This document shows positions 42,739-50,347 of a stretch of DNA of 64,000 bases, piece after piece. Positions within the stretch are counted from its first letter, which is position 1. Every line of letters starts with the position of its first letter. The DNA lies in assembly GCA_040397825.1 (NCBI GenBank), contig JBBAVH010000025.1, positions 6,633 to 70,632 on the forward strand, given 5' to 3'. Source of the DNA: Opitutaceae bacterium. GTDB lineage: Bacteria > Verrucomicrobiota > Verrucomicrobiia > Opitutales > Opitutaceae. The translations under genes were made by a program, and so were the position numbers. The notes under the pieces were generated by a model. That model searched no databases, was not told the DNA's origin, and saw only the letters and a list, made by a program, of their open reading frames with translations.

Positions 42739-43001
42739 GAGGTTGAATTAAGTCGTGGGGCAGACGCCGGGGATCGGCGCGGGGATACGGAGTTTCTTGC
42801 ACGGATTGCCCGGCGCAAGCCCGCACGCTGGGTCCGGGGCGAGCGGTTGGCGGGAGGGAAGACCGCGGAGGAACCCGACGGTGCACGGTTCGGACACCAT
42901 GCCCGGCGGGAGCCGTTTTCCGGCGGCGGGTCACGCGATCAGCAGGAATGCCTCGTCGAGGAAAGGGGTTTCGTGACACGATCCCTCCCTCTTCACCGAC
43001 C

Positions 43002-44426
43002 ATGATCCGATTTCTCGCCGCGGAGATCCGCCGCCTTGAACTGCGGGCGCGCATGCCGTTCCGCTACGGCATCGCGACGATGACCGACGTGCCGCAGGTG
43101 ATCGTACGCGTGACGTTCGAACTGGGTGGCGCCGTCCAGACCGGCCTGGCCGCCGACCTGCTGCCGCCGAAGTGGTTCACCAAGGACCCAGCGCGCGGGC
43201 TGGCCGACGAGATCGACGAGATGCTCCTCGTCCTCCGCGCCGCCCTGCGGCACGCGGCGGCCGTGCGGGCGCCGACGACCTTCGCCTTCTGGCGGGAGCT
43301 CGACGCCGCGCAATCCGCGTGGGGCCGCGCGCAGGGATTGCCGCCGCTGCTGACCGGTTTTGGCACGAGCTTCGTTGAGCGCGCGCTCATCCATGCGCTC
43401 TGTCGCGCTCACGGTGCCACGCTCTCCCAGGCGCTGTGGGGCAATCTGGTCGGCGCCGATCTCGGGGCCGTCGCGCCCGAACTCCGCGGCGTCGCGGCGG
43501 CCGACTTCCTGCCGGCGGTGCCGCCGGCGCACGTATTCGCGCGGCACACGGTGGGTTTGTCGGACCCCGTGACGGCAGCCGACCTGGCCGCCGGCGAGCG
43601 CGTGGAGGACGGCCTGCCGCAGACCCTCGAGGAGGTCATCCGCGGCTACGGCCAGCGGCACTTCAAGATCAAGGTGAACGGCGACTTCGCGCGCGATCGC
43701 GACCGTCTGTCCCGGATGGCCCGCGTGCTGGTGGCCGGGTGCGGCGGCGACTTCGCGTTTTCGCTCGATGGCAACGAGAGCTTCCGCGACGTCGCCTCTT
43801 TTCGCGATTACTACCGCGCGCTGCGCGCTGAACCCGCGCTGGTCGACCTATGGCCGCGCCTGCTCTACGTCGAGCAGCCGTGGCACCGCGACGTGGCGCT
43901 GAGCCCGGCGATTGGTGAATTGGCGCGGACCTGGCCGGACCGCCCGCCGGTGATCATCGATGAGAGCGACGCCGAACCGGCCAGCCTGCCGGCGGCGCTC
44001 GCGCTGGGCTACGCGGGGACGAGCCACAAGAACTGCAAGGGCGTCTTCAAGAGCGTCGTGAACGCCGGCCTGCTGGCGCGCCGTCGGGCGGCCGGTCTGC
44101 CCGCCGTGCTGAGCGGTGAGGATCTCGCGAACGTCGGCCCCATCTCGACCCTGCAGGATCTTGCTGCGCAGGCCGCGCTGGGTGTCACGAGCGTGGAACG
44201 AAACGGACACCATTACTTCGCCGGTCTGGCGCAGTTTCCCGAAGCCCTGCGGGAGCATGCGCTGCGGTCGCATCCCGACCTGTATGCGGCCGACGCCGCC
44301 CGCGGCTGGCCGCGACTCACTCTACGCGAGGGCAAACTAGCCCTCGGCTCGGTGAACGCCGCGCCTTTCGGCGTGCCCGGCGAGCCCGACCTTTCGGCGC
44401 TGCCGTGCGAGCGCGTGGCAGGTTGA
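43002..44426 (+). CDS. Enolase-superfamily (mandelate racemase/MLE-like) protein
   Basis: Start reset to MIRFLAAE. KIKV (KxK) and metal-ligand-like DGNE, EQP, DESD, then KNCKG and GEDL. Confidence 0.75.
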   Translation: MIRFLAAEIRRLELRARMPFRYGIATMTDVPQVIVRVTFELGGAVQTGLAADLLPPKWFTKDPARGLADEIDEMLLVLRAALRHAAAVRAPTTFAFWRELDAAQSAWGRAQGLPPLLTGFGTSFVERALIHALCRAHGATLSQALWGNLVGADLGAVAPELRGVAAADFLPAVPPAHVFARHTVGLSDPVTAADLAAGERVEDGLPQTLEEVIRGYGQRHFKIKVNGDFARDRDRLSRMARVLVAGCGGDFAFSLDGNESFRDVASFRDYYRALRAEPALVDLWPRLLYVEQPWHRDVALSPAIGELARTWPDRPPVIIDESDAEPASLPAALALGYAGTSHKNCKGVFKSVVNAGLLARRRAAGLPAVLSGEDLANVGPISTLQDLAAQAALGVTSVERNGHHYFAGLAQFPEALREHALRSHPDLYAADAARGWPRLTLREGKLALGSVNAAPFGVPGEPDLSALPCERVAG

Positions 44427-44466: not shown

Positions 44467-45747
44467 TCAGTTTTCCAGCCGGTACAGGTGGGTCTTGCTG
44501 CGGACGAAGAGGGCGCGGCCGGCGACGGCCGGAGAGGCCATGAAGCCGCCGTCGAGCTTGTTCGCCGCCACGACCTTGAAGGCCCGCCCGGCCTCGATGA
44601 CGGTCCCGTGGCCGTTCTCGTTGAAGAAGTACAGTCGCCCGTCGGCCAGCACCGGCGAGGACGAGTAGCTGCCCGCGCCGGGCAGGCGCTCCTTCCAGAT
44701 TTCCTTGCCCGTGAGCGCCTCGAGGCACGTGACGACGCCGCCGTCCTGATCGACCATGAACAACAGTTCGCCGGCGAGCACGGGGGAGGGGCGGTTGGGG
44801 ACGTTGCGCGTGACCTTCCACGCGACGTGCGTGCCGGTGACCACGCCGCTGCCGCCCAGCCGCACGGCCCAAAGTTCACCCTTCGCGAGGCCGGTGGCGG
44901 TGTAGACGAAGCCGTGGCCGACGACGGGGCGCACGGTACCCGAGTGATGCTTGCGTTCCTCCACGCGCCAGAGCTCGCGGCCGTCCTTGGGATCATAGGC
45001 GTAGGTGGCCTTGGAGGCGGCGCTGATGAGCAGCGGCTTGCCCTCGTGCGTGACGACGAGCGGGGAGGAGAAGGCCTTGCGGAAATCGCCGTCGCGGATC
45101 GGCTTCCCCTCCGGCGTGAGGTCCTGAAAGTCGATCGTCCGGTTCGTGCGCCACACGTCGCGGCCGGTGCGCTTGTCGAGCGCGACCACGTACTGGTGGT
45201 CGGCCCCGTCGAAATGCATGATGAGCAGGTCGCCCCAGACCGTGGGCGATGATCCGGCTCCGCGCCAATGGTTGCAGGGCAGGTCGCGCCGGTCCCATAG
45301 GACCTTGCCGGTGGCGGTGTCGAGGCAGGCCGTGCCGGCGGAGCCGAACGTCACGTAGACGCGTCCCTCCTCGATCACCGGCGTCGGCGAGCCGTAGCTG
45401 TTGAACTTGTCGGCGTACTGCGGCTCCGCGACCGAGAACAACGCCAAGTCATGCACGATCCGGCCCGACTCCCGGTCGACCGCGATCGCGCCGAGCTGGC
45501 GGCCGTCCTCCGTGGCGGTGGTGACCCAGACCTGCCGGCCCCACACGACGGGTGACGACCACGCCTTGCCCTTGAGCGGCGTCTTCCACTTCACGTGCTC
45601 GGTCTCGCTCCATGTGAGCGGGAGCCCGGTGGAGTCGGCGATGCCCTGTCCCGTGGGACCGCGGAACTGGGGCCAGTTTTCGCCCGCTCGGAGCAGGGCG
45701 GCGAGGGCGAGCAGCAATGCGGTCAGGCGGACGAAACGGGGCATCAT
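44467..45747 (-). CDS. PQQ-like beta-propeller repeat protein (BamB-like fold), exported
   Basis: ENWPQFRGP, KWKT, WSSPV, TGKVLW, TGKEIWK and ASPAV repeats. Start reset to MMPRFVRL. Confidence 0.9.
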   Translation of the reverse strand: MMPRFVRLTALLLALAALLRAGENWPQFRGPTGQGIADSTGLPLTWSETEHVKWKTPLKGKAWSSPVVWGRQVWVTTATEDGRQLGAIAVDRESGRIVHDLALFSVAEPQYADKFNSYGSPTPVIEEGRVYVTFGSAGTACLDTATGKVLWDRRDLPCNHWRGAGSSPTVWGDLLIMHFDGADHQYVVALDKRTGRDVWRTNRTIDFQDLTPEGKPIRDGDFRKAFSSPLVVTHEGKPLLISAASKATYAYDPKDGRELWRVEERKHHSGTVRPVVGHGFVYTATGLAKGELWAVRLGGSGVVTGTHVAWKVTRNVPNRPSPVLAGELLFMVDQDGGVVTCLEALTGKEIWKERLPGAGSYSSSPVLADGRLYFFNENGHGTVIEAGRAFKVVAANKLDGGFMASPAVAGRALFVRSKTHLYRLEN

Positions 45748-46176
45748 GGGGTGGGGTGGAGTACGGGCGCGAAGGTGTGCGGCCGGCTCCGCGCGAGGCA
45801 AACAAAACCCCGGCCGCGGCTCGCTCTTCGCCATGCTACCTGCCACGCTGGTCATCGCCGAGCATCAGGGCGATGGCGACGCCGGTTCCCATGGTAAGAC
45901 GGACGTCGAGACGCCGAATTCGGACGCGATCGTCCTCGAGGGCGTCCGTTTCACCCCATCCCCCGTAATCCCGCCGTGCGCGCCTACGCCGCGCGGCCGG
46001 CCTAGGCTGGGGCGTTCGAGCTCTAGCACCGCGACGCCGATGTCGGCGAAACGCGCGATCTCGCTGAGGAACAGCCGGCGGTCTAAGCGGACCTGAAGCG
46101 CCGCCACCTCGAGTGGCTGCGGCAGTTCGCACGGTCGTGCTGCGACCGAGGGCCGCGTTTCAAACCGGCCTGAACG

Positions 46177-47169
46177 TCAGAACAAACCGTTGGCGAGGAC
46201 GCCGACGGCGGTGAGGGGGCCACTGTCCCCCATGCCGTCGAGGGCCCGGTCGGCCTTGCGCATGAGGGAGCGCATGTCGCGCAGGAGGGTCTCGTCGCCG
46301 AGCAGCTTGCCGAGGGTGCCCTCGCCGCGGGAGAGACGCTCCGAGACCGAGCGCAGGCCGGAGAGGGAGGCCTTCAGGTCCTCGCCCGCCTTCTGGTCAA
46401 ACACGAGGGTGCCGAGGGTGCCGCGGCCCGCCTTGACCTCGTCGAGCAGGCCCTGGGCGCTGGCGAGGAAGTTCTTCGCCTGAGTCGCGCCGCCTCGCAG
46501 GTCGGCCACGCCGGCGACGAGTTCGTCGTGCAGGCGGGGGTCGTTGATGAGTTTCCCGAGGGTGCCTTCGCCGCGGTTCACCTTGTCGGTGATCAACTGC
46601 AGGTTGGCCGTCGCGCGGCTGAGGTTCTCGCGGTTGTCGGTGACGAGCTGGTCAAGCTTCTGGACGAGGCCGGGGGAACGCCCGTCGCCTGAGAAGGCGC
46701 CGCTGATGCCCTGCAGCGCGCCCTCGAGTTTCTGCCCGAGGTCGCCGATCTGGGCCATGACCTCGTTGAGGTCGGGCGTCTTCCGCGTGCGGATCTCGGC
46801 GCCGGGCTTGAGTGCGGCGGCCTTCTCCGAACCGAGGTCGATGCTGACGTAGGCCGTGCCGATCAGGCCGTTGGTGATGATCACGGCAGCGGCGTCCTCC
46901 TTGATCAGCTGGTGGCTGTCGATGCGGAGCAAGGCCTCGGCGCGGCGGCCGGCGAGGCGGGTGGAGGCGACCTCGCCGATCTTCACGCCGGCCATGCGCA
47001 CGTCGTCGCCCTCCTTGAGCTCCTTCAGCGTGTCGAAGCCGGCGACGACCTGATAGCCCTTGTCGCGGAGGATCTTGCCTCCGCTGAGGGTCTCGAACGT
47101 CACCCAGATGAGGGCCATCCCGAGGAGGAAGAAGAGGCCGACGCGGGCGGTTTGCTGGGCGTTTTGCAT
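46177..47169 (-). CDS. mlaD: MlaD/MCE-family protein with long helical tail
   Basis: N-terminal TM helix, MCE motifs LKEGDDVRMAGVKIGEV and GLIGTAYV, three GxGTLGxL repeats. Confidence 0.9.
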   Translation of the reverse strand: MQNAQQTARVGLFFLLGMALIWVTFETLSGGKILRDKGYQVVAGFDTLKELKEGDDVRMAGVKIGEVASTRLAGRRAEALLRIDSHQLIKEDAAAVIITNGLIGTAYVSIDLGSEKAAALKPGAEIRTRKTPDLNEVMAQIGDLGQKLEGALQGISGAFSGDGRSPGLVQKLDQLVTDNRENLSRATANLQLITDKVNRGEGTLGKLINDPRLHDELVAGVADLRGGATQAKNFLASAQGLLDEVKAGRGTLGTLVFDQKAGEDLKASLSGLRSVSERLSRGEGTLGKLLGDETLLRDMRSLMRKADRALDGMGDSGPLTAVGVLANGLF

Positions 47170-47212
47170 GGGAGTGCTCTTGGATCGAAAGTGTCTTGGC
47201 TGATCGGCGCGC

Positions 47213-48016
47213 TCACGGCTCCAGTTGCCGGAAGCGCGGGTTGCGCAGGTCGATGCGCGGGTTGAGGAAGTCGGCGACGCGGGGATCGGCGGGCGCGCGC
47301 AGGTCCGCGGGCGGGCCGAGCGAGACCAGGCGGCCGCCCATGAGGATGCCGACGCGGTCGGCGATGCCGAGCGCGAGATCGCGGTCGTGGGAGACCACGA
47401 TCGAGGTGACGTGGTACTGCTCGCGAAGGGTGGCGATGACCTCCGAGATCGTGGCCGACATCACGGGGTCGAGCTCGCTGGTGGGCTCGTCGTAGAGCAT
47501 GAGCTGCGGCTCCATGACGAGGGCGCGGGCGATGGCGACGCGCTTGCGCATGCCCCCCGAGAGCTCGGCGGGGAGCTTCCGGGCGGCGTTCTCGAGCGAA
47601 AGGATCTGCAGGGAGCGCATCACCTTGTCGCGGATGACGGCCTCGGTACCGAACCGGTGCTCGCGCGGGTAGAGCGCGAGGTTGTCGTACACCGTCATTG
47701 AGTTGAACAGCGCCCCGGCCTGGAAAACCAGGGCCATGCGGACGAGTCCGCGGGTGGCGGGTTCGGCCGCGTCGTGACCGTCGACCGTCACCCGGCCGGC
47801 GCTGGGTCGCTCCAACCCCACCACGTGCTTGAGCAGCACGCTCTTGCCCGAGCCACTGGGGCCCATGAGCACGAAAATCTCCCCCGGGCTGACGGTCAGC
47901 GAGATGTCCCGCAGGACCTGGAAACCGCCGAAGTCCTTCGAAAGTCCCTCCACCGAAACGCCGACGGCGGCGGGTCCGGAGCGGGCGGGCATGGAAGTTG
48001 GGACAGCGGCCGGCAT
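47213..48016 (-). CDS. mlaF: ABC ATP-binding protein, MlaF-like
   Basis: GPSGSGKS, LSGGMRKR, LYDEPT and SHD motifs. Start reset to 48016. Confidence 0.92.
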   Translation of the reverse strand: MPAAVPTSMPARSGPAAVGVSVEGLSKDFGGFQVLRDISLTVSPGEIFVLMGPSGSGKSVLLKHVVGLERPSAGRVTVDGHDAAEPATRGLVRMALVFQAGALFNSMTVYDNLALYPREHRFGTEAVIRDKVMRSLQILSLENAARKLPAELSGGMRKRVAIARALVMEPQLMLYDEPTSELDPVMSATISEVIATLREQYHVTSIVVSHDRDLALGIADRVGILMGGRLVSLGPPADLRAPADPRVADFLNPRIDLRNPRFRQLEP

Positions 48017-48024
48017 GGGAGGTA

Positions 48025-48843
48025 TCACATCAGCGCCTTCGTGACGAAGTAATCGAGCACGAGGATGAGGATGAGGGAGGTGACGACGGCGCGGGTGACG
48101 GACGCGCCGATCTCTCGCGGGCCGCCGCGGGTGTTGAGACCGATGTTGCAGCAGACGAGGACGACCGCGAAGCCGAAGATCTCCGCCTTCACCAGGCCGT
48201 TCAGCACGTCGCCGAAGTCCATGTACTGGCGCATGGTGGCGAAGTAGGAGGCGGGCTCGATCGAGATGAAGTGGGTGTACTTGGCGACGATGGCCCCGCC
48301 GAACCAGCCGACGAGGTCCGACATGATCGTGAGCACGGGCATCATCGCGAGCACGGCGGCGAGGCGCGGCAGCACGAGCATCCGCGCCGGCGGGATGTTC
48401 ATGGTCTCGAGCGCATCTATCTCCTGATAGACCTTCATCGAGGCGAGCTCGGCGGCGATGGCCGAGCCCACGCGGCCGGCGAGGAGCACGGCGGCCATGA
48501 CGGGCCCGAGTTCCCGCGCCATGGAGAGTCCGACCAGCAGCCCGATGAACTGCTTTGGGCCGATGTTCGCCGCGGCGTAGCCCGACTGCAGCGCGAGCAC
48601 GCTGCCGATGAAGAAGCTCAGGATGGCGACGATCGGGAGCGTCGTGTAGCCGATCAGGTAGCACTGCTCGATGAAGCGGCCGAACTGCCGCGGCAGGGAA
48701 GGCGCGTGCCGGGCGGCCTCGGCGAGGAGCTGCAACGCGCTGCCGATGCCCTCCAGCACGCGCACGAACGGCCGCACCACCTGCTTGGGCGCGGCGGTGA
48801 GGATCGATTCGTTCGCTTCGGCGTCCTGTTGTTCAGAGGCCAT
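48025..48843 (-). CDS. mlaE: ABC permease, MlaE-like
   Basis: RELGPVMAAVLLAGRVGSAIAAELASMKVYQEIDAL and GGPREIGASVTRAVV motifs. Start reset to MASEQQD. Confidence 0.93.
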   Translation of the reverse strand: MASEQQDAEANESILTAAPKQVVRPFVRVLEGIGSALQLLAEAARHAPSLPRQFGRFIEQCYLIGYTTLPIVAILSFFIGSVLALQSGYAAANIGPKQFIGLLVGLSMARELGPVMAAVLLAGRVGSAIAAELASMKVYQEIDALETMNIPPARMLVLPRLAAVLAMMPVLTIMSDLVGWFGGAIVAKYTHFISIEPASYFATMRQYMDFGDVLNGLVKAEIFGFAVVLVCCNIGLNTRGGPREIGASVTRAVVTSLILILVLDYFVTKALM

Positions 48844-50347
48844 CGGAGGGTCGGGATGAAAACCGGAAGACGGTGAATTTCCAGCCGCCGCCCGCGTCGC
48901 GCTCGAAGCCAAGGAGGCCATTGCCCAACGTGAGGCGCCGGGCACCGCCGGCGCGCACGCTCGAGAAGAGTGGGCCGAGGTGGAACTCCGCGCGGTCCTC
49001 TTCCGGGTTGCTTTCCCAGGTGATCGCGTCCCACAGCAGCGACGTGCGGCCGCCGCCGCCCGCGCGTTCCTCGCCGCGGGCGAGGGTGACTAACGGCGAC
49101 CATGCCTGCCGCACCCGGGCGTCGGCGGGCAGGAAGACCTCGAGCGGACTCGGAAACTGCCATTGGCGGCGCCCGCGGCCGTCCTCCCAGTGGCTAAGGA
49201 GCGGCCACACGTGCGTGAGTGAGGCCGCCGGACCGTCGCTGCGGCCGGCGATCCGCTGCGACTCGTGCCAGTAGAGGAAGTAAAGGAACTGGCTGCGGGC
49301 GCGGTCGACGCCCTCCTCGGTCCACTCCGCATGGCGGGCCAGCGGCCAGAAGTACCACCACTGCTCCCGTCCCTTGAGGACGGAATGGCTGTAGATCGGG
49401 GCCCAGCGGTTGACGTGGGCCTCTTCGCCGCGGCCCTGCACGAGGAACGGCCAGAGGTACCGGCGTTCGGAGTAACGGACCGGCGAGGTGCGTTCGGTGA
49501 AGCCGAACAACGGCCAGAGATAGGTTTCGTTGGCGTAACCGGGCCCGAGGCTCCGGCTGTAGAAGGGCAGGAACGCGGTGTCCCGCCGCGGGGCGGTGCC
49601 GGGCGGATCGTCGGGATCCGGCTGCCGCACGACGTCGTGGCCGAGCGGCCAGAGGACGTGGGTCGCGCTCATCTCCCCCGGCCGCTCGACGGTGCTGTAC
49701 AGCGGCCAGATGCCCCACCCGCTGGCCGCGCCCTGCGTCGTGCGCAAGAACGGCCAGGGCGCGTAGGTCGTCGTCGCCCCGCGGTTTTCCACTTCGGCGA
49801 AGAACGGGAAGAAGGTCCACGACGCGCGTTCGAGGCCGAATTTCTGCCGCACCGTGCCGTGGAGGGGAAACAGAGCGCGGTAGTTCAGGGCCGGGTCGTC
49901 GAAATCGCGCTCGAACCAGAACGGAGCAATCTCGAGACGGTGCCTCTCGTCGAAGACCTCGGGGGCCGCGGCCCCTTCGAGGCGCCCTTGCCGCCGTACG
50001 AGCTCCAGCAGGCTCCAGCGGTAATGGCCGCCCTCCTCCACGTAGCTGAACAGCGGGTAGAGAGCGTGCGCTGAGTGAAAGGCTCCGGCTGGATCGCGGA
50101 ATTCCACCCAGAACGGACGAAAGCCTCGGGCCGTACCCCGGCCGCCCCCGCCCGCCGGGCCGGAGAACAGGAAGGGTCCCAGCCCGCTCCACGGGCTGCT
50201 TTCGGTGGCGGGAATCCGCGCAACCGCCATCGGCCACCCGTTCGCCACGCGCGGAACCGCGGCGGCCGGCCTCGACGGGGCGCGCGTCGCCTCTCCGGCG
50301 CGGAGGGCGCCGGCGGCGAGGACGATGATGGCAAGTCTGCGAATCAC
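48833..50347 (-). CDS. Exported aromatic-rich protein with repeated (F/L/Y)-(W/F/Y)-P-(L/F) motifs, unknown function, leads the Mla operon
   Basis: Start reset to GTG 50347 (VIRRLAIIVLAAGALRA, signal peptide). 504 aa. Overlaps the mlaE start by 11 nt. Confidence 0.8.
   Translation of the reverse strand: MIRRLAIIVLAAGALRAGEATRAPSRPAAAVPRVANGWPMAVARIPATESSPWSGLGPFLFSGPAGGGGRGTARGFRPFWVEFRDPAGAFHSAHALYPLFSYVEEGGHYRWSLLELVRRQGRLEGAAAPEVFDERHRLEIAPFWFERDFDDPALNYRALFPLHGTVRQKFGLERASWTFFPFFAEVENRGATTTYAPWPFLRTTQGAASGWGIWPLYSTVERPGEMSATHVLWPLGHDVVRQPDPDDPPGTAPRRDTAFLPFYSRSLGPGYANETYLWPLFGFTERTSPVRYSERRYLWPFLVQGRGEEAHVNRWAPIYSHSVLKGREQWWYFWPLARHAEWTEEGVDRARSQFLYFLYWHESQRIAGRSDGPAASLTHVWPLLSHWEDGRGRRQWQFPSPLEVFLPADARVRQAWSPLVTLARGEERAGGGGRTSLLWDAITWESNPEEDRAEFHLGPLFSSVRAGGARRLTLGNGLLGFERDAGGGWKFTVFRFSSRPSDGL

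Follow-up and report, generated by a model that had tools for sequence, protein, structure and literature searches.

An exported aromatic-proline repeat protein as a probable fourth component of a needle-type MCE transporter in Opitutaceae

The window analysed here is a stretch of 64,000 nucleotides from an Opitutaceae bacterium (GenBank assembly GCA_040397825.1, contig JBBAVH010000025.1, positions 6,633 to 70,632). Four packed genes, with no space for more, occupy positions 46177-50347 on its minus strand: gene X, mlaE, an mlaF-type gene and mlaD. X encodes a 504-residue exported Trp-Pro beta-hairpin-repeat protein (P0001; 48833-50347, minus strand), called with a GTG start from its open reading frame and translation. 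It is highly probable that X is a structural component of the MlaE-MlaF-MCE transporter, because synteny is found in both directions, from X and from MlaD, which is strong evidence. The system as a whole appears to be a needle-type MCE transporter with an undescribed, and possibly new-fold, fourth component.

Linkage of X to the MCE transporter genes

Among 84 Opitutales loci anchored on X, none with sufficient downstream DNA was without mlaE, mlaF and mlaD in the same order and on the same strand. The available sequence reached into mlaD in 73 of these loci, three of them as partial genes at the contig end, and the other 11 ended earlier. The remote homologues of X, which share 21-32% identity as measured in the more diverse of two alignments (A2), were beside MCE genes in all six loci. 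Four of the six were arranged as X, mlaE, an ATP-binding cassette (ABC) gene and mlaD, although the fourth gene of L090 runs off the contig and has no Pfam record. Another remote locus (L085:7001-10389) has the order X-mlaE-mlaD with no ATPase gene adjacent, and in the last (L086:7001-9510) X is followed directly by mlaD alone, with neither mlaE nor mlaF adjacent. For these two loci, the missing ABC parts must come from genes elsewhere or from another system that shares them. Since X and mlaD stand by themselves at L086, X is tied to the MCE protein in particular.

The linkage was also evaluated in the reverse direction, using MlaD-anchored metagenome loci that had at least 3.2 kb of upstream DNA and MlaD relatives at 31-72% identity. 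X-mlaE-mlaF was present in 39 of 40. In the lone exception, L152 (5331-6687; probably also L153), MlaD is reduced to residues 100-330, its ...GFF tail being intact, and this remnant directly adjoins the RsmD-like methyltransferase gene that normally lies upstream of X. It appears that one deletion removed X, mlaE and mlaF en bloc together with the 5' end of mlaD, which suggests that the four genes are lost as a single unit. Co-occurrence with mlaEFD had been proposed as a check in the original prediction, made from the letters of the window, and the linkage of X homologues to MCE operons proved near-universal, in both directions and in distant lineages. The lack of such linkage, named there as a refutation, was thus not seen.

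The three genes downstream of X could be assigned from profile matches. The mlaE permease has 272 residues when read from the ATG at 48843 (48025-48843, minus strand; PF02405, E 8e-75), and its score of 222.7 bits against TIGR00056 lies above the cut-off of 212.2, which places it in the MlaE family of permeases. With this ATG the X and mlaE genes overlap by 11 nucleotides, while a start at the GTG at 48780 would leave a gap of about 50 nucleotides. The ABC ATPase has 267 residues from the ATG at 48016 (47213-48016, minus strand; PF00005, E 2e-33). Its score against the MlaF equivalog model NF008809 was 171 bits (E 2.9e-50), under the 441-bit cut-off, and by these scores the protein is MlaF-like and not an MlaF equivalog. 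The last gene encodes a 330-residue MCE/MlaD protein (46177-47169, minus strand; PF02470, E 6e-16). The four-gene operon contains no mlaA, mlaB or mlaC. No match to MlaA (PF04333), MlaC (PF05494) or the PqiC family was found in X, in the other operon genes or in any gene listed among the neighbours of the homologues.

Secondary structure taken from an AlphaFold2 model of MlaD gave a transmembrane helix at residues 4-29, an MCE beta domain at 39-128 and a helical remainder at 134-329. The model was used for secondary structure only; as a monomer, its helical part had a low predicted local distance difference test score (pLDDT), and low confidence in the needle is expected for a hexameric assembly. 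The MlaD homologues carry the Helical_needle domain (PF28544) on record, and the MlaD family profile matched Mce1B (8fed_B, E 7e-19) and PA3213 (13hr_I, E 7e-18), aligning through about residue 210. On the strength of the helical region, the Helical_needle records and these profile matches, the window MlaD is classified as a needle-type MCE protein. Within residues 134-330 (window 46180-46770) there are also three internal Gly-rich repeats, NRGEGTLGKL near residue 198, KAGRGTLGTL near 246 and SRGEGTLGKL near 280. Residues G202, T203, G205 and D210, G248, G250, G253 and D258, and G282, G284, L286 and G287 are invariant in the MlaD alignment; the repeats may be turns or hinges of the needle.

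The carboxyl end of MlaD is distinctive. Tail conservation delimits a peptide at residues 315-330, DSGPLTAVGVLANGLF-COOH (46180-46227, minus strand), and these last 16 residues are nearly invariant in the family, with the consensus D(S/T)GP(I/L)(T/S)A(V/L)G(V/I)xxxxLF-COOH. The LF ending was present in nearly all of the 78 MlaD sequences from operon loci, including four of the five remote ones (the end differs in L088), and, with few exceptions, the 70 complete sequences from MlaD-anchored metagenome loci share this ending even where overall identity falls to 31%. By analogy with the known needle systems described below, the peptide is a candidate docking site for X.

Sequence and predicted structure of X

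Databases were searched for relatives of X. Neither X nor 13 of its homologues had a Pfam match at E cut-offs of 1 to 10, and hence none belongs to PF03886 (PqiC-like); X and these homologues also had no match in NCBIfam or among PDB sequences. A homoserine dehydrogenase returned by the PDB profile search (E 0.35) was rejected as a chance match. A word-indexed search found about 1,000 homologues, each named one being annotated as hypothetical, and an exhaustive search of 1.8 billion representatives gave 643 clusters at 50% identity (E <= 0.001), down to about 26% identity. When one genome per species was scanned with the other alignment (A1), 290 genomes were found; the best 80 were nearly all labelled Opitutales, Opitutaceae or Verrucomicrobiota, with one contig labelled Rubrivivax. 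One remote branch lies in the Desulfuromonadales, including cultured Desulfuromonas versatilis (DESUT3_20330), Geoalkalibacter ferrihydriticus and Trichloromonas, and a second consists of metagenome-assembled genomes labelled Thermodesulfobacteriota or Candidatus Dadabacteria. A full-text literature search found no publication describing the family. Judged by these searches, the X family is large, unnamed and unannotated and is without a solved relative.

The amino end of X, MIRRLAIIVLAAGALRAGEA, has two Arg followed by an 11-residue hydrophobic core and resembles a Sec-type signal peptide, spanning residues 1 to about 20 (50288-50347, minus strand) by its sequence features. It contains no Cys, and Cys is absent from the entire protein, so that there is no lipobox. 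Because a Sec-type signal peptide is combined with the lack of Cys, X is read from its sequence as exported but not lipidated. The possibility that the window X is a lipoprotein was rejected on the same lack of Cys; a lipobox-like string was found in only 5-11% of the sampled family members.

The repeats of X are real. The seven pentapeptides on which the original prediction had based an exported repeat protein, LYPLF, IWPLY, LWPLG, LWPLF, LWPFL, FWPLA and VWPLL, are all present, at residues 96, 213, 232, 277, 298, 333 and 380. Counted with the strict pattern [FWYLIVA][FWYLA]P[LFIV], X has 12 motifs, far above the 1.4 +/- 1.1 (maximum 7) seen in 20,000 shuffles of the same protein. Alignment of 434 family members shows 18 conserved motif prolines, about 16-21 residues apart. 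The repeats number about 20, with a mean interval of about 19 residues, so that the presence of repeats was borne out although the estimate of about 15 was slightly low. The repeat consensus is a hydrophobic residue (-2), an aromatic residue (-1), Pro (0), a hydrophobic residue (+1) and an aromatic residue (+2), with polar or charged positions on both sides. Overall, 14.7% of the residues are aromatic (W 5.0%, F 6.7%, Y 3.0%) and 8.3% are Pro.

The repeat body, delimited by DSSP on the predicted model, by the repeat anchors and by the consensus, covers residues 56-495 (48863-50182, minus strand). Residues 394-422 (49082-49168, minus strand) form a signature segment, QWQ..SPLE.FFP.N...R..WSPL, that is partly helical and is set apart by its conservation and its long-range coevolution. 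It is the most conserved block among the 434 sequences, and Q395, Q397, S400, E403, N409 and R413 are its conserved polar residues.

AlphaFold2 was employed to model X from a 36-sequence alignment. The model is all-beta, with a pLDDT of 81.7, a predicted template modelling (TM) score of 0.63 and a core above 90 in pLDDT. It begins with a helix at residues 2-17, is disordered from 18 to 55 and continues over residues 60-493 as 42 strands, each of 4-8 residues, the series being broken by two short helices at 410-420. The disordered stretch, between the signal peptide and the first strand, includes an N-x-W-P motif at residues 36-39 (window 50230-50242), in which N36, W38 and P39 are invariant in the 36 Opitutales sequences; it may be an extra arc or strand that is ordered only within a complex.

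Comparison of the model with the PDB using Foldseek gave no global fold match, all query-normalised TM-scores being 0.2 or less. Beta-propellers (IFT-A, BamB, YxaL) had the top E-values and were rejected, with TM-scores of 0.10-0.15 and root-mean-square deviations of 15-28 Å; they share a local beta-meander only. No barrel of the outer-membrane protein (OMP) type was among the listed matches. The best local likeness was to the CPAP G-box (4bxr; target-normalised TM-score 0.46), followed by MORN1 (6t6q; 0.27-0.37), with further local likeness to OspA and, weakly, to the ApoB100 belt and the teneurin YD shell. The G-box/TCP10 domain, MORN1 and OspA resemble X in their polar strands and continuous antiparallel meander, but none of them has a sequence relation to X or a conserved aromatic-Pro arc in every second loop. 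The new repetitive beta-hairpin protein that had been proposed is thus supported by an all-beta model of about 21 hairpins and no global fold match in the PDB. Furthermore, searches of the PDB, Pfam and NCBIfam gave no resemblance to an enzyme in fold or sequence, and a match of the modelled fold to an unrelated known enzyme, which the original prediction had named as a refutation, was not found.

The strand topology was tested by mean-field direct coupling analysis of 402-517 sequences (effective number 265-354), with a zero-sum gauge and the gap state excluded. The strongest couplings were contacts between neighbouring strands of the predicted hairpins (285-293, 305-312, 212-218, 163-178 and 337-354), and neighbouring strands averaged 1.03, the background being 0.5. 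The analysis showed no further regular pairing of strands. The coevolution confirms a meander of neighbouring strands. The sole robust long-range cluster connects the N-terminal repeats with segment 399-422; the pair 59-419 is the top long-range coupling, at 8-11 standard deviations, and the pairs 56-400, 63-403, 77-418 and 94-415 also belong to it. These couplings suggest that the chain folds back or closes on itself.

The distribution of hydrophobic residues in the model was then evaluated. Typical strands of X are polar (YSERRY, VDRARSQF, YANETY), and when averaged over the family only 3 of the 42 have a hydrophobic face (Kyte-Doolittle score above 1.5). The 41 strand connections alternate without exception between a polar turn (odd) and a greasy arc (even). 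The odd connections have Kyte-Doolittle hydropathies of about -0.1 to -2.2. The even ones range from +0.2 to +2.2 and have Wimley-White interfacial free energies of about 0 to -0.8, favouring the membrane interface; most of them carry the aromatic-Pro motif. In a beta-meander, alternate connections fall on opposite edges of the sheet. Because the two kinds of connection alternate and the meander places alternate ones on opposite edges, the model predicts that one rim of X is a continuous stripe of about 20 Trp/Phe/Leu-Pro arcs and that the other rim is polar. Since the strands are polar and the greasy arcs are confined to one rim, X is predicted to be an amphipathic belt and not a classical transmembrane barrel. 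The modelled belt fits a protein that rests its rim in a membrane leaflet or buries it against a partner.

The carboxyl end of X was examined for a barrel signal. A minority of the diverse representatives (30 of 107) end three residues or fewer from an alternating hydrophobic strand. Many remote members end exactly in ...FLWFKF, ...LLWFRI or ...LFWHQF, which recalls the beta-signal of OMPs, but this is not general; in the Opitutales proteins the last alternating hydrophobic strand is followed by a tail with a median of 12 residues.

Genomic surroundings and related systems

Upstream of X in the window lies an M16 peptidase gene in divergent orientation. In several Opitutaceae loci and in one locus of a remote homologue the corresponding divergent gene encodes an RsmD-like methyltransferase (PF03602; L001:7202-7762, L003:7064-7693, L087:4536-5117, L152:5331-5915). 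About 320 nucleotides downstream of mlaD there is a gene for an exported PQQ/BamB-like beta-propeller of 462 residues (44467-45855, minus strand; PF13360, E 2e-28). Its position is not conserved, being taken by a gene for an immunoglobulin-like protein in L001 and by argG, on the opposite strand, in L003; the propeller is therefore probably outside the transporter system. A further open reading frame encoding 492 residues (42948-44426, plus strand) had no Pfam match at E <= 0.01. The G+C content of the operon region is about 69%, and the labels on close homologues point to the Opitutaceae (Verrucomicrobiota). Near-identical DNA is present in many freshwater metagenomes, and a search for RNA evidence of the locus turned up only such freshwater DNA metagenomes.

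The nearest published precedent is not MlaA or MlaC but the PqiC-like ring that caps needle-type MCE proteins (PMC13631591, PMC12436622). In P. aeruginosa, PA3211-PA3214 (PDB 13hr, Giacometti et al. 2026) comprise an MlaE-like protein, an MlaF-like protein, a single-MCE needle and a PqiC-like lipoprotein (PMC13631591). The last seven residues of PA3213 sit in a hydrophobic groove on the outer-membrane-facing side of the PA3214 ring, which surrounds the needle tip; the authors state that the MCE tail sequence sets partner specificity, and that how needle systems engage the outer membrane is still unclear (PMC13631591). In Brucella abortus MpcEFDA, MpcA co-purifies with MpcEFD (PMC12436622). The window operon resembles both systems in having four genes that encode a permease, an ATPase, a single-MCE needle protein of about 310-330 residues with a distinctive C-terminal peptide, and an exported fourth protein. 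It differs from them in that fourth protein, which in PA3211-PA3214 and MpcEFDA is a PqiC-like lipoprotein of about 200 residues (PF03886) that forms an octameric ring. In contrast, X has 504 residues, is free of Cys, consists of all-beta repeats, has no sequence or fold relation to PqiC and is encoded first rather than last. The MCE tails also differ, the window MlaD ending in ...GLF and PA3213 (K306-P312) in Pro.

A survey of MCE systems found MlaABC mostly in Proteobacteria and classed 85% of MlaD proteins as long (Grasekamp et al. 2023, PMC10665443). The MlaD proteins of the PVC group are long and barrel-less, and the authors raised the possibility that as yet unidentified proteins are needed for barrel folding (PMC10665443). 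As in the minimal MlaEFD systems of the Veillonella parvula type, the window operon is without MlaA, MlaB and MlaC, and it encodes a long, helical MlaD that would bridge the envelope. The Veillonella MlaD bears its own outer-membrane beta-barrel (PMC10665443), whereas here MlaD ends in a 16-residue peptide and there is a separate, conserved protein, X, which is not described in that survey. With its fused barrel, the Veillonella protein also shows that the original premise, by which an MCE system requires a partner in the outer membrane or the periplasm, is too strong. Compared with E. coli Mla (MlaFEDB, MlaC and MlaA-OmpC/F), the window operon has homologous MlaE, MlaF and MCE domains, but E. 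coli MlaD is short and needle-less, and E. coli transport depends on the soluble shuttle MlaC and the lipoprotein MlaA, with the STAS subunit MlaB in the complex. The window operon encodes no MlaA, MlaB or MlaC, and X is unlike all three.

Possible role of X in the transporter

A new partner, a barrel or groove handing lipids to MlaD, had been proposed originally. The partnership is upheld by the two-way synteny; a barrel, in the transmembrane sense, is at odds with polar strands of only 4-8 residues, of which so few have a hydrophobic face; a hand-over of lipids through a groove is a conjecture. With moderate confidence, and by analogy with the needle systems, we favour a model in which X is a new, non-homologous counterpart of PqiC and MpcA at the outer-membrane end of the needle. 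A hexamer of MlaD would form a helical needle across the periplasm, as suggested by its homologues Mce1 and PA3213, the latter with a rod about 170 Å long (PMC13631591). X would be placed at its distal, outer-membrane end, in the role of the PqiC-like ring (PA3214, PqiC, MpcA), with its greasy aromatic rim resting in the inner leaflet of the outer membrane, and would bind the ...GPITAVGxxxxxLF tails of MlaD, thereby anchoring or capping the needle.

Several points weigh against this model. Synteny indicates partnership and not position, and X may instead have its place along the needle or at the inner-membrane end. The window X has no lipid anchor and its strands do not span a membrane; its placement at the outer membrane is inferred. 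Closure of a ring, the orientation of the rim and any groove are tentative, and the long-range coevolution rests on few residue pairs and could be phylogenetic. Moreover, the conserved MlaD tails could instead assemble into a small six-stranded barrel, as happens in Mce1 and has been predicted for some barrel-less MlaD proteins (PMC10665443).

The possibility was considered that X is a soluble periplasmic component that stays off the outer membrane, either a lipid shuttle like MlaC or, somewhere along the needle such as its passage through the peptidoglycan, a sheath or bushing. X has a signal peptide but neither a lipid anchor nor transmembrane strands, its polar strands are rich in Arg and Glu, as are soluble single-layer beta-sheets, with local likeness to the G-box, MORN and OspA, and the operon has no mlaC. 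However, a free soluble protein with about 20 conserved Trp/Phe/Leu-Pro arcs on one rim would expose a large hydrophobic surface, and a needle-type MCE protein is already a continuous conduit, for which a shuttle should be unneeded (PMC13631591, PMC10665443). A soluble role is considered unlikely. It seems more improbable still that X works at the inner-membrane end, whether in assembly, in regulation or as a collar on the periplasmic side of MlaE and the MCE ring. The X gene lies immediately upstream of mlaE with a probable overlap, which suggests translational coupling, and the outer leaflet of the inner membrane could accommodate the greasy rim just as well. On the other hand, the remote locus with X and mlaD alone speaks for a tie to the MCE protein and not to the permease, the conserved feature of MlaD is its extreme carboxyl end, far from the inner membrane, and a belt of 34-42 strands would probably not reach around an MCE ring of about 75-100 Å (dimensions from PMC13631591).

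The conserved polar residues of the signature block could also be an active or binding site, in which case X might be an enzyme or a binding protein for the substrate or the cell wall that is co-expressed for convenience and is not mechanically tied to the transporter. This is very unlikely given that the gene order is near-universal both ways, down to the most remote homologues, that the genes are lost together, and that the searches found no likeness of X to any enzyme. The least likely of these alternatives is an integral outer-membrane beta-barrel, inserted by the beta-barrel assembly machinery as a pore or an anchor for the needle. An all-beta protein of 42 strands and the beta-signal-like last strand of many remote members would suit a barrel, but the short and polar strands, the Foldseek matches, none of them listed as an OMP, and the tail that follows the last strand in Opitutales all argue against it.

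If X does serve as the counterpart of PqiC and MpcA, a more specific arrangement may be entertained, although it is speculative and on balance doubtful. X would represent a third class of outer-membrane-side MCE partner, one without structural precedent, beside the MlaA- and PqiC-type lipoproteins and the fused barrels: a self-closing, one-layer belt of about 40 short polar strands, in which the N-terminal repeats pack on residues 394-422. The resulting annulus, roughly as large as the PqiC octamer, would sit in one leaflet only, fixed there by the roughly 20 aromatic-proline arcs, and would clasp the six ...GLF peptides of the MlaD hexamer. Such a closed annulus, if true, would be a new type of monotopic membrane protein.

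The fold of X may be new. A family model combined with the operon rule would annotate thousands of genes that are now labelled hypothetical. In diderm bacteria other than the Proteobacteria, the movement of phospholipids from one membrane to the other is poorly understood, and the X family is a candidate for the missing end of the bridge.

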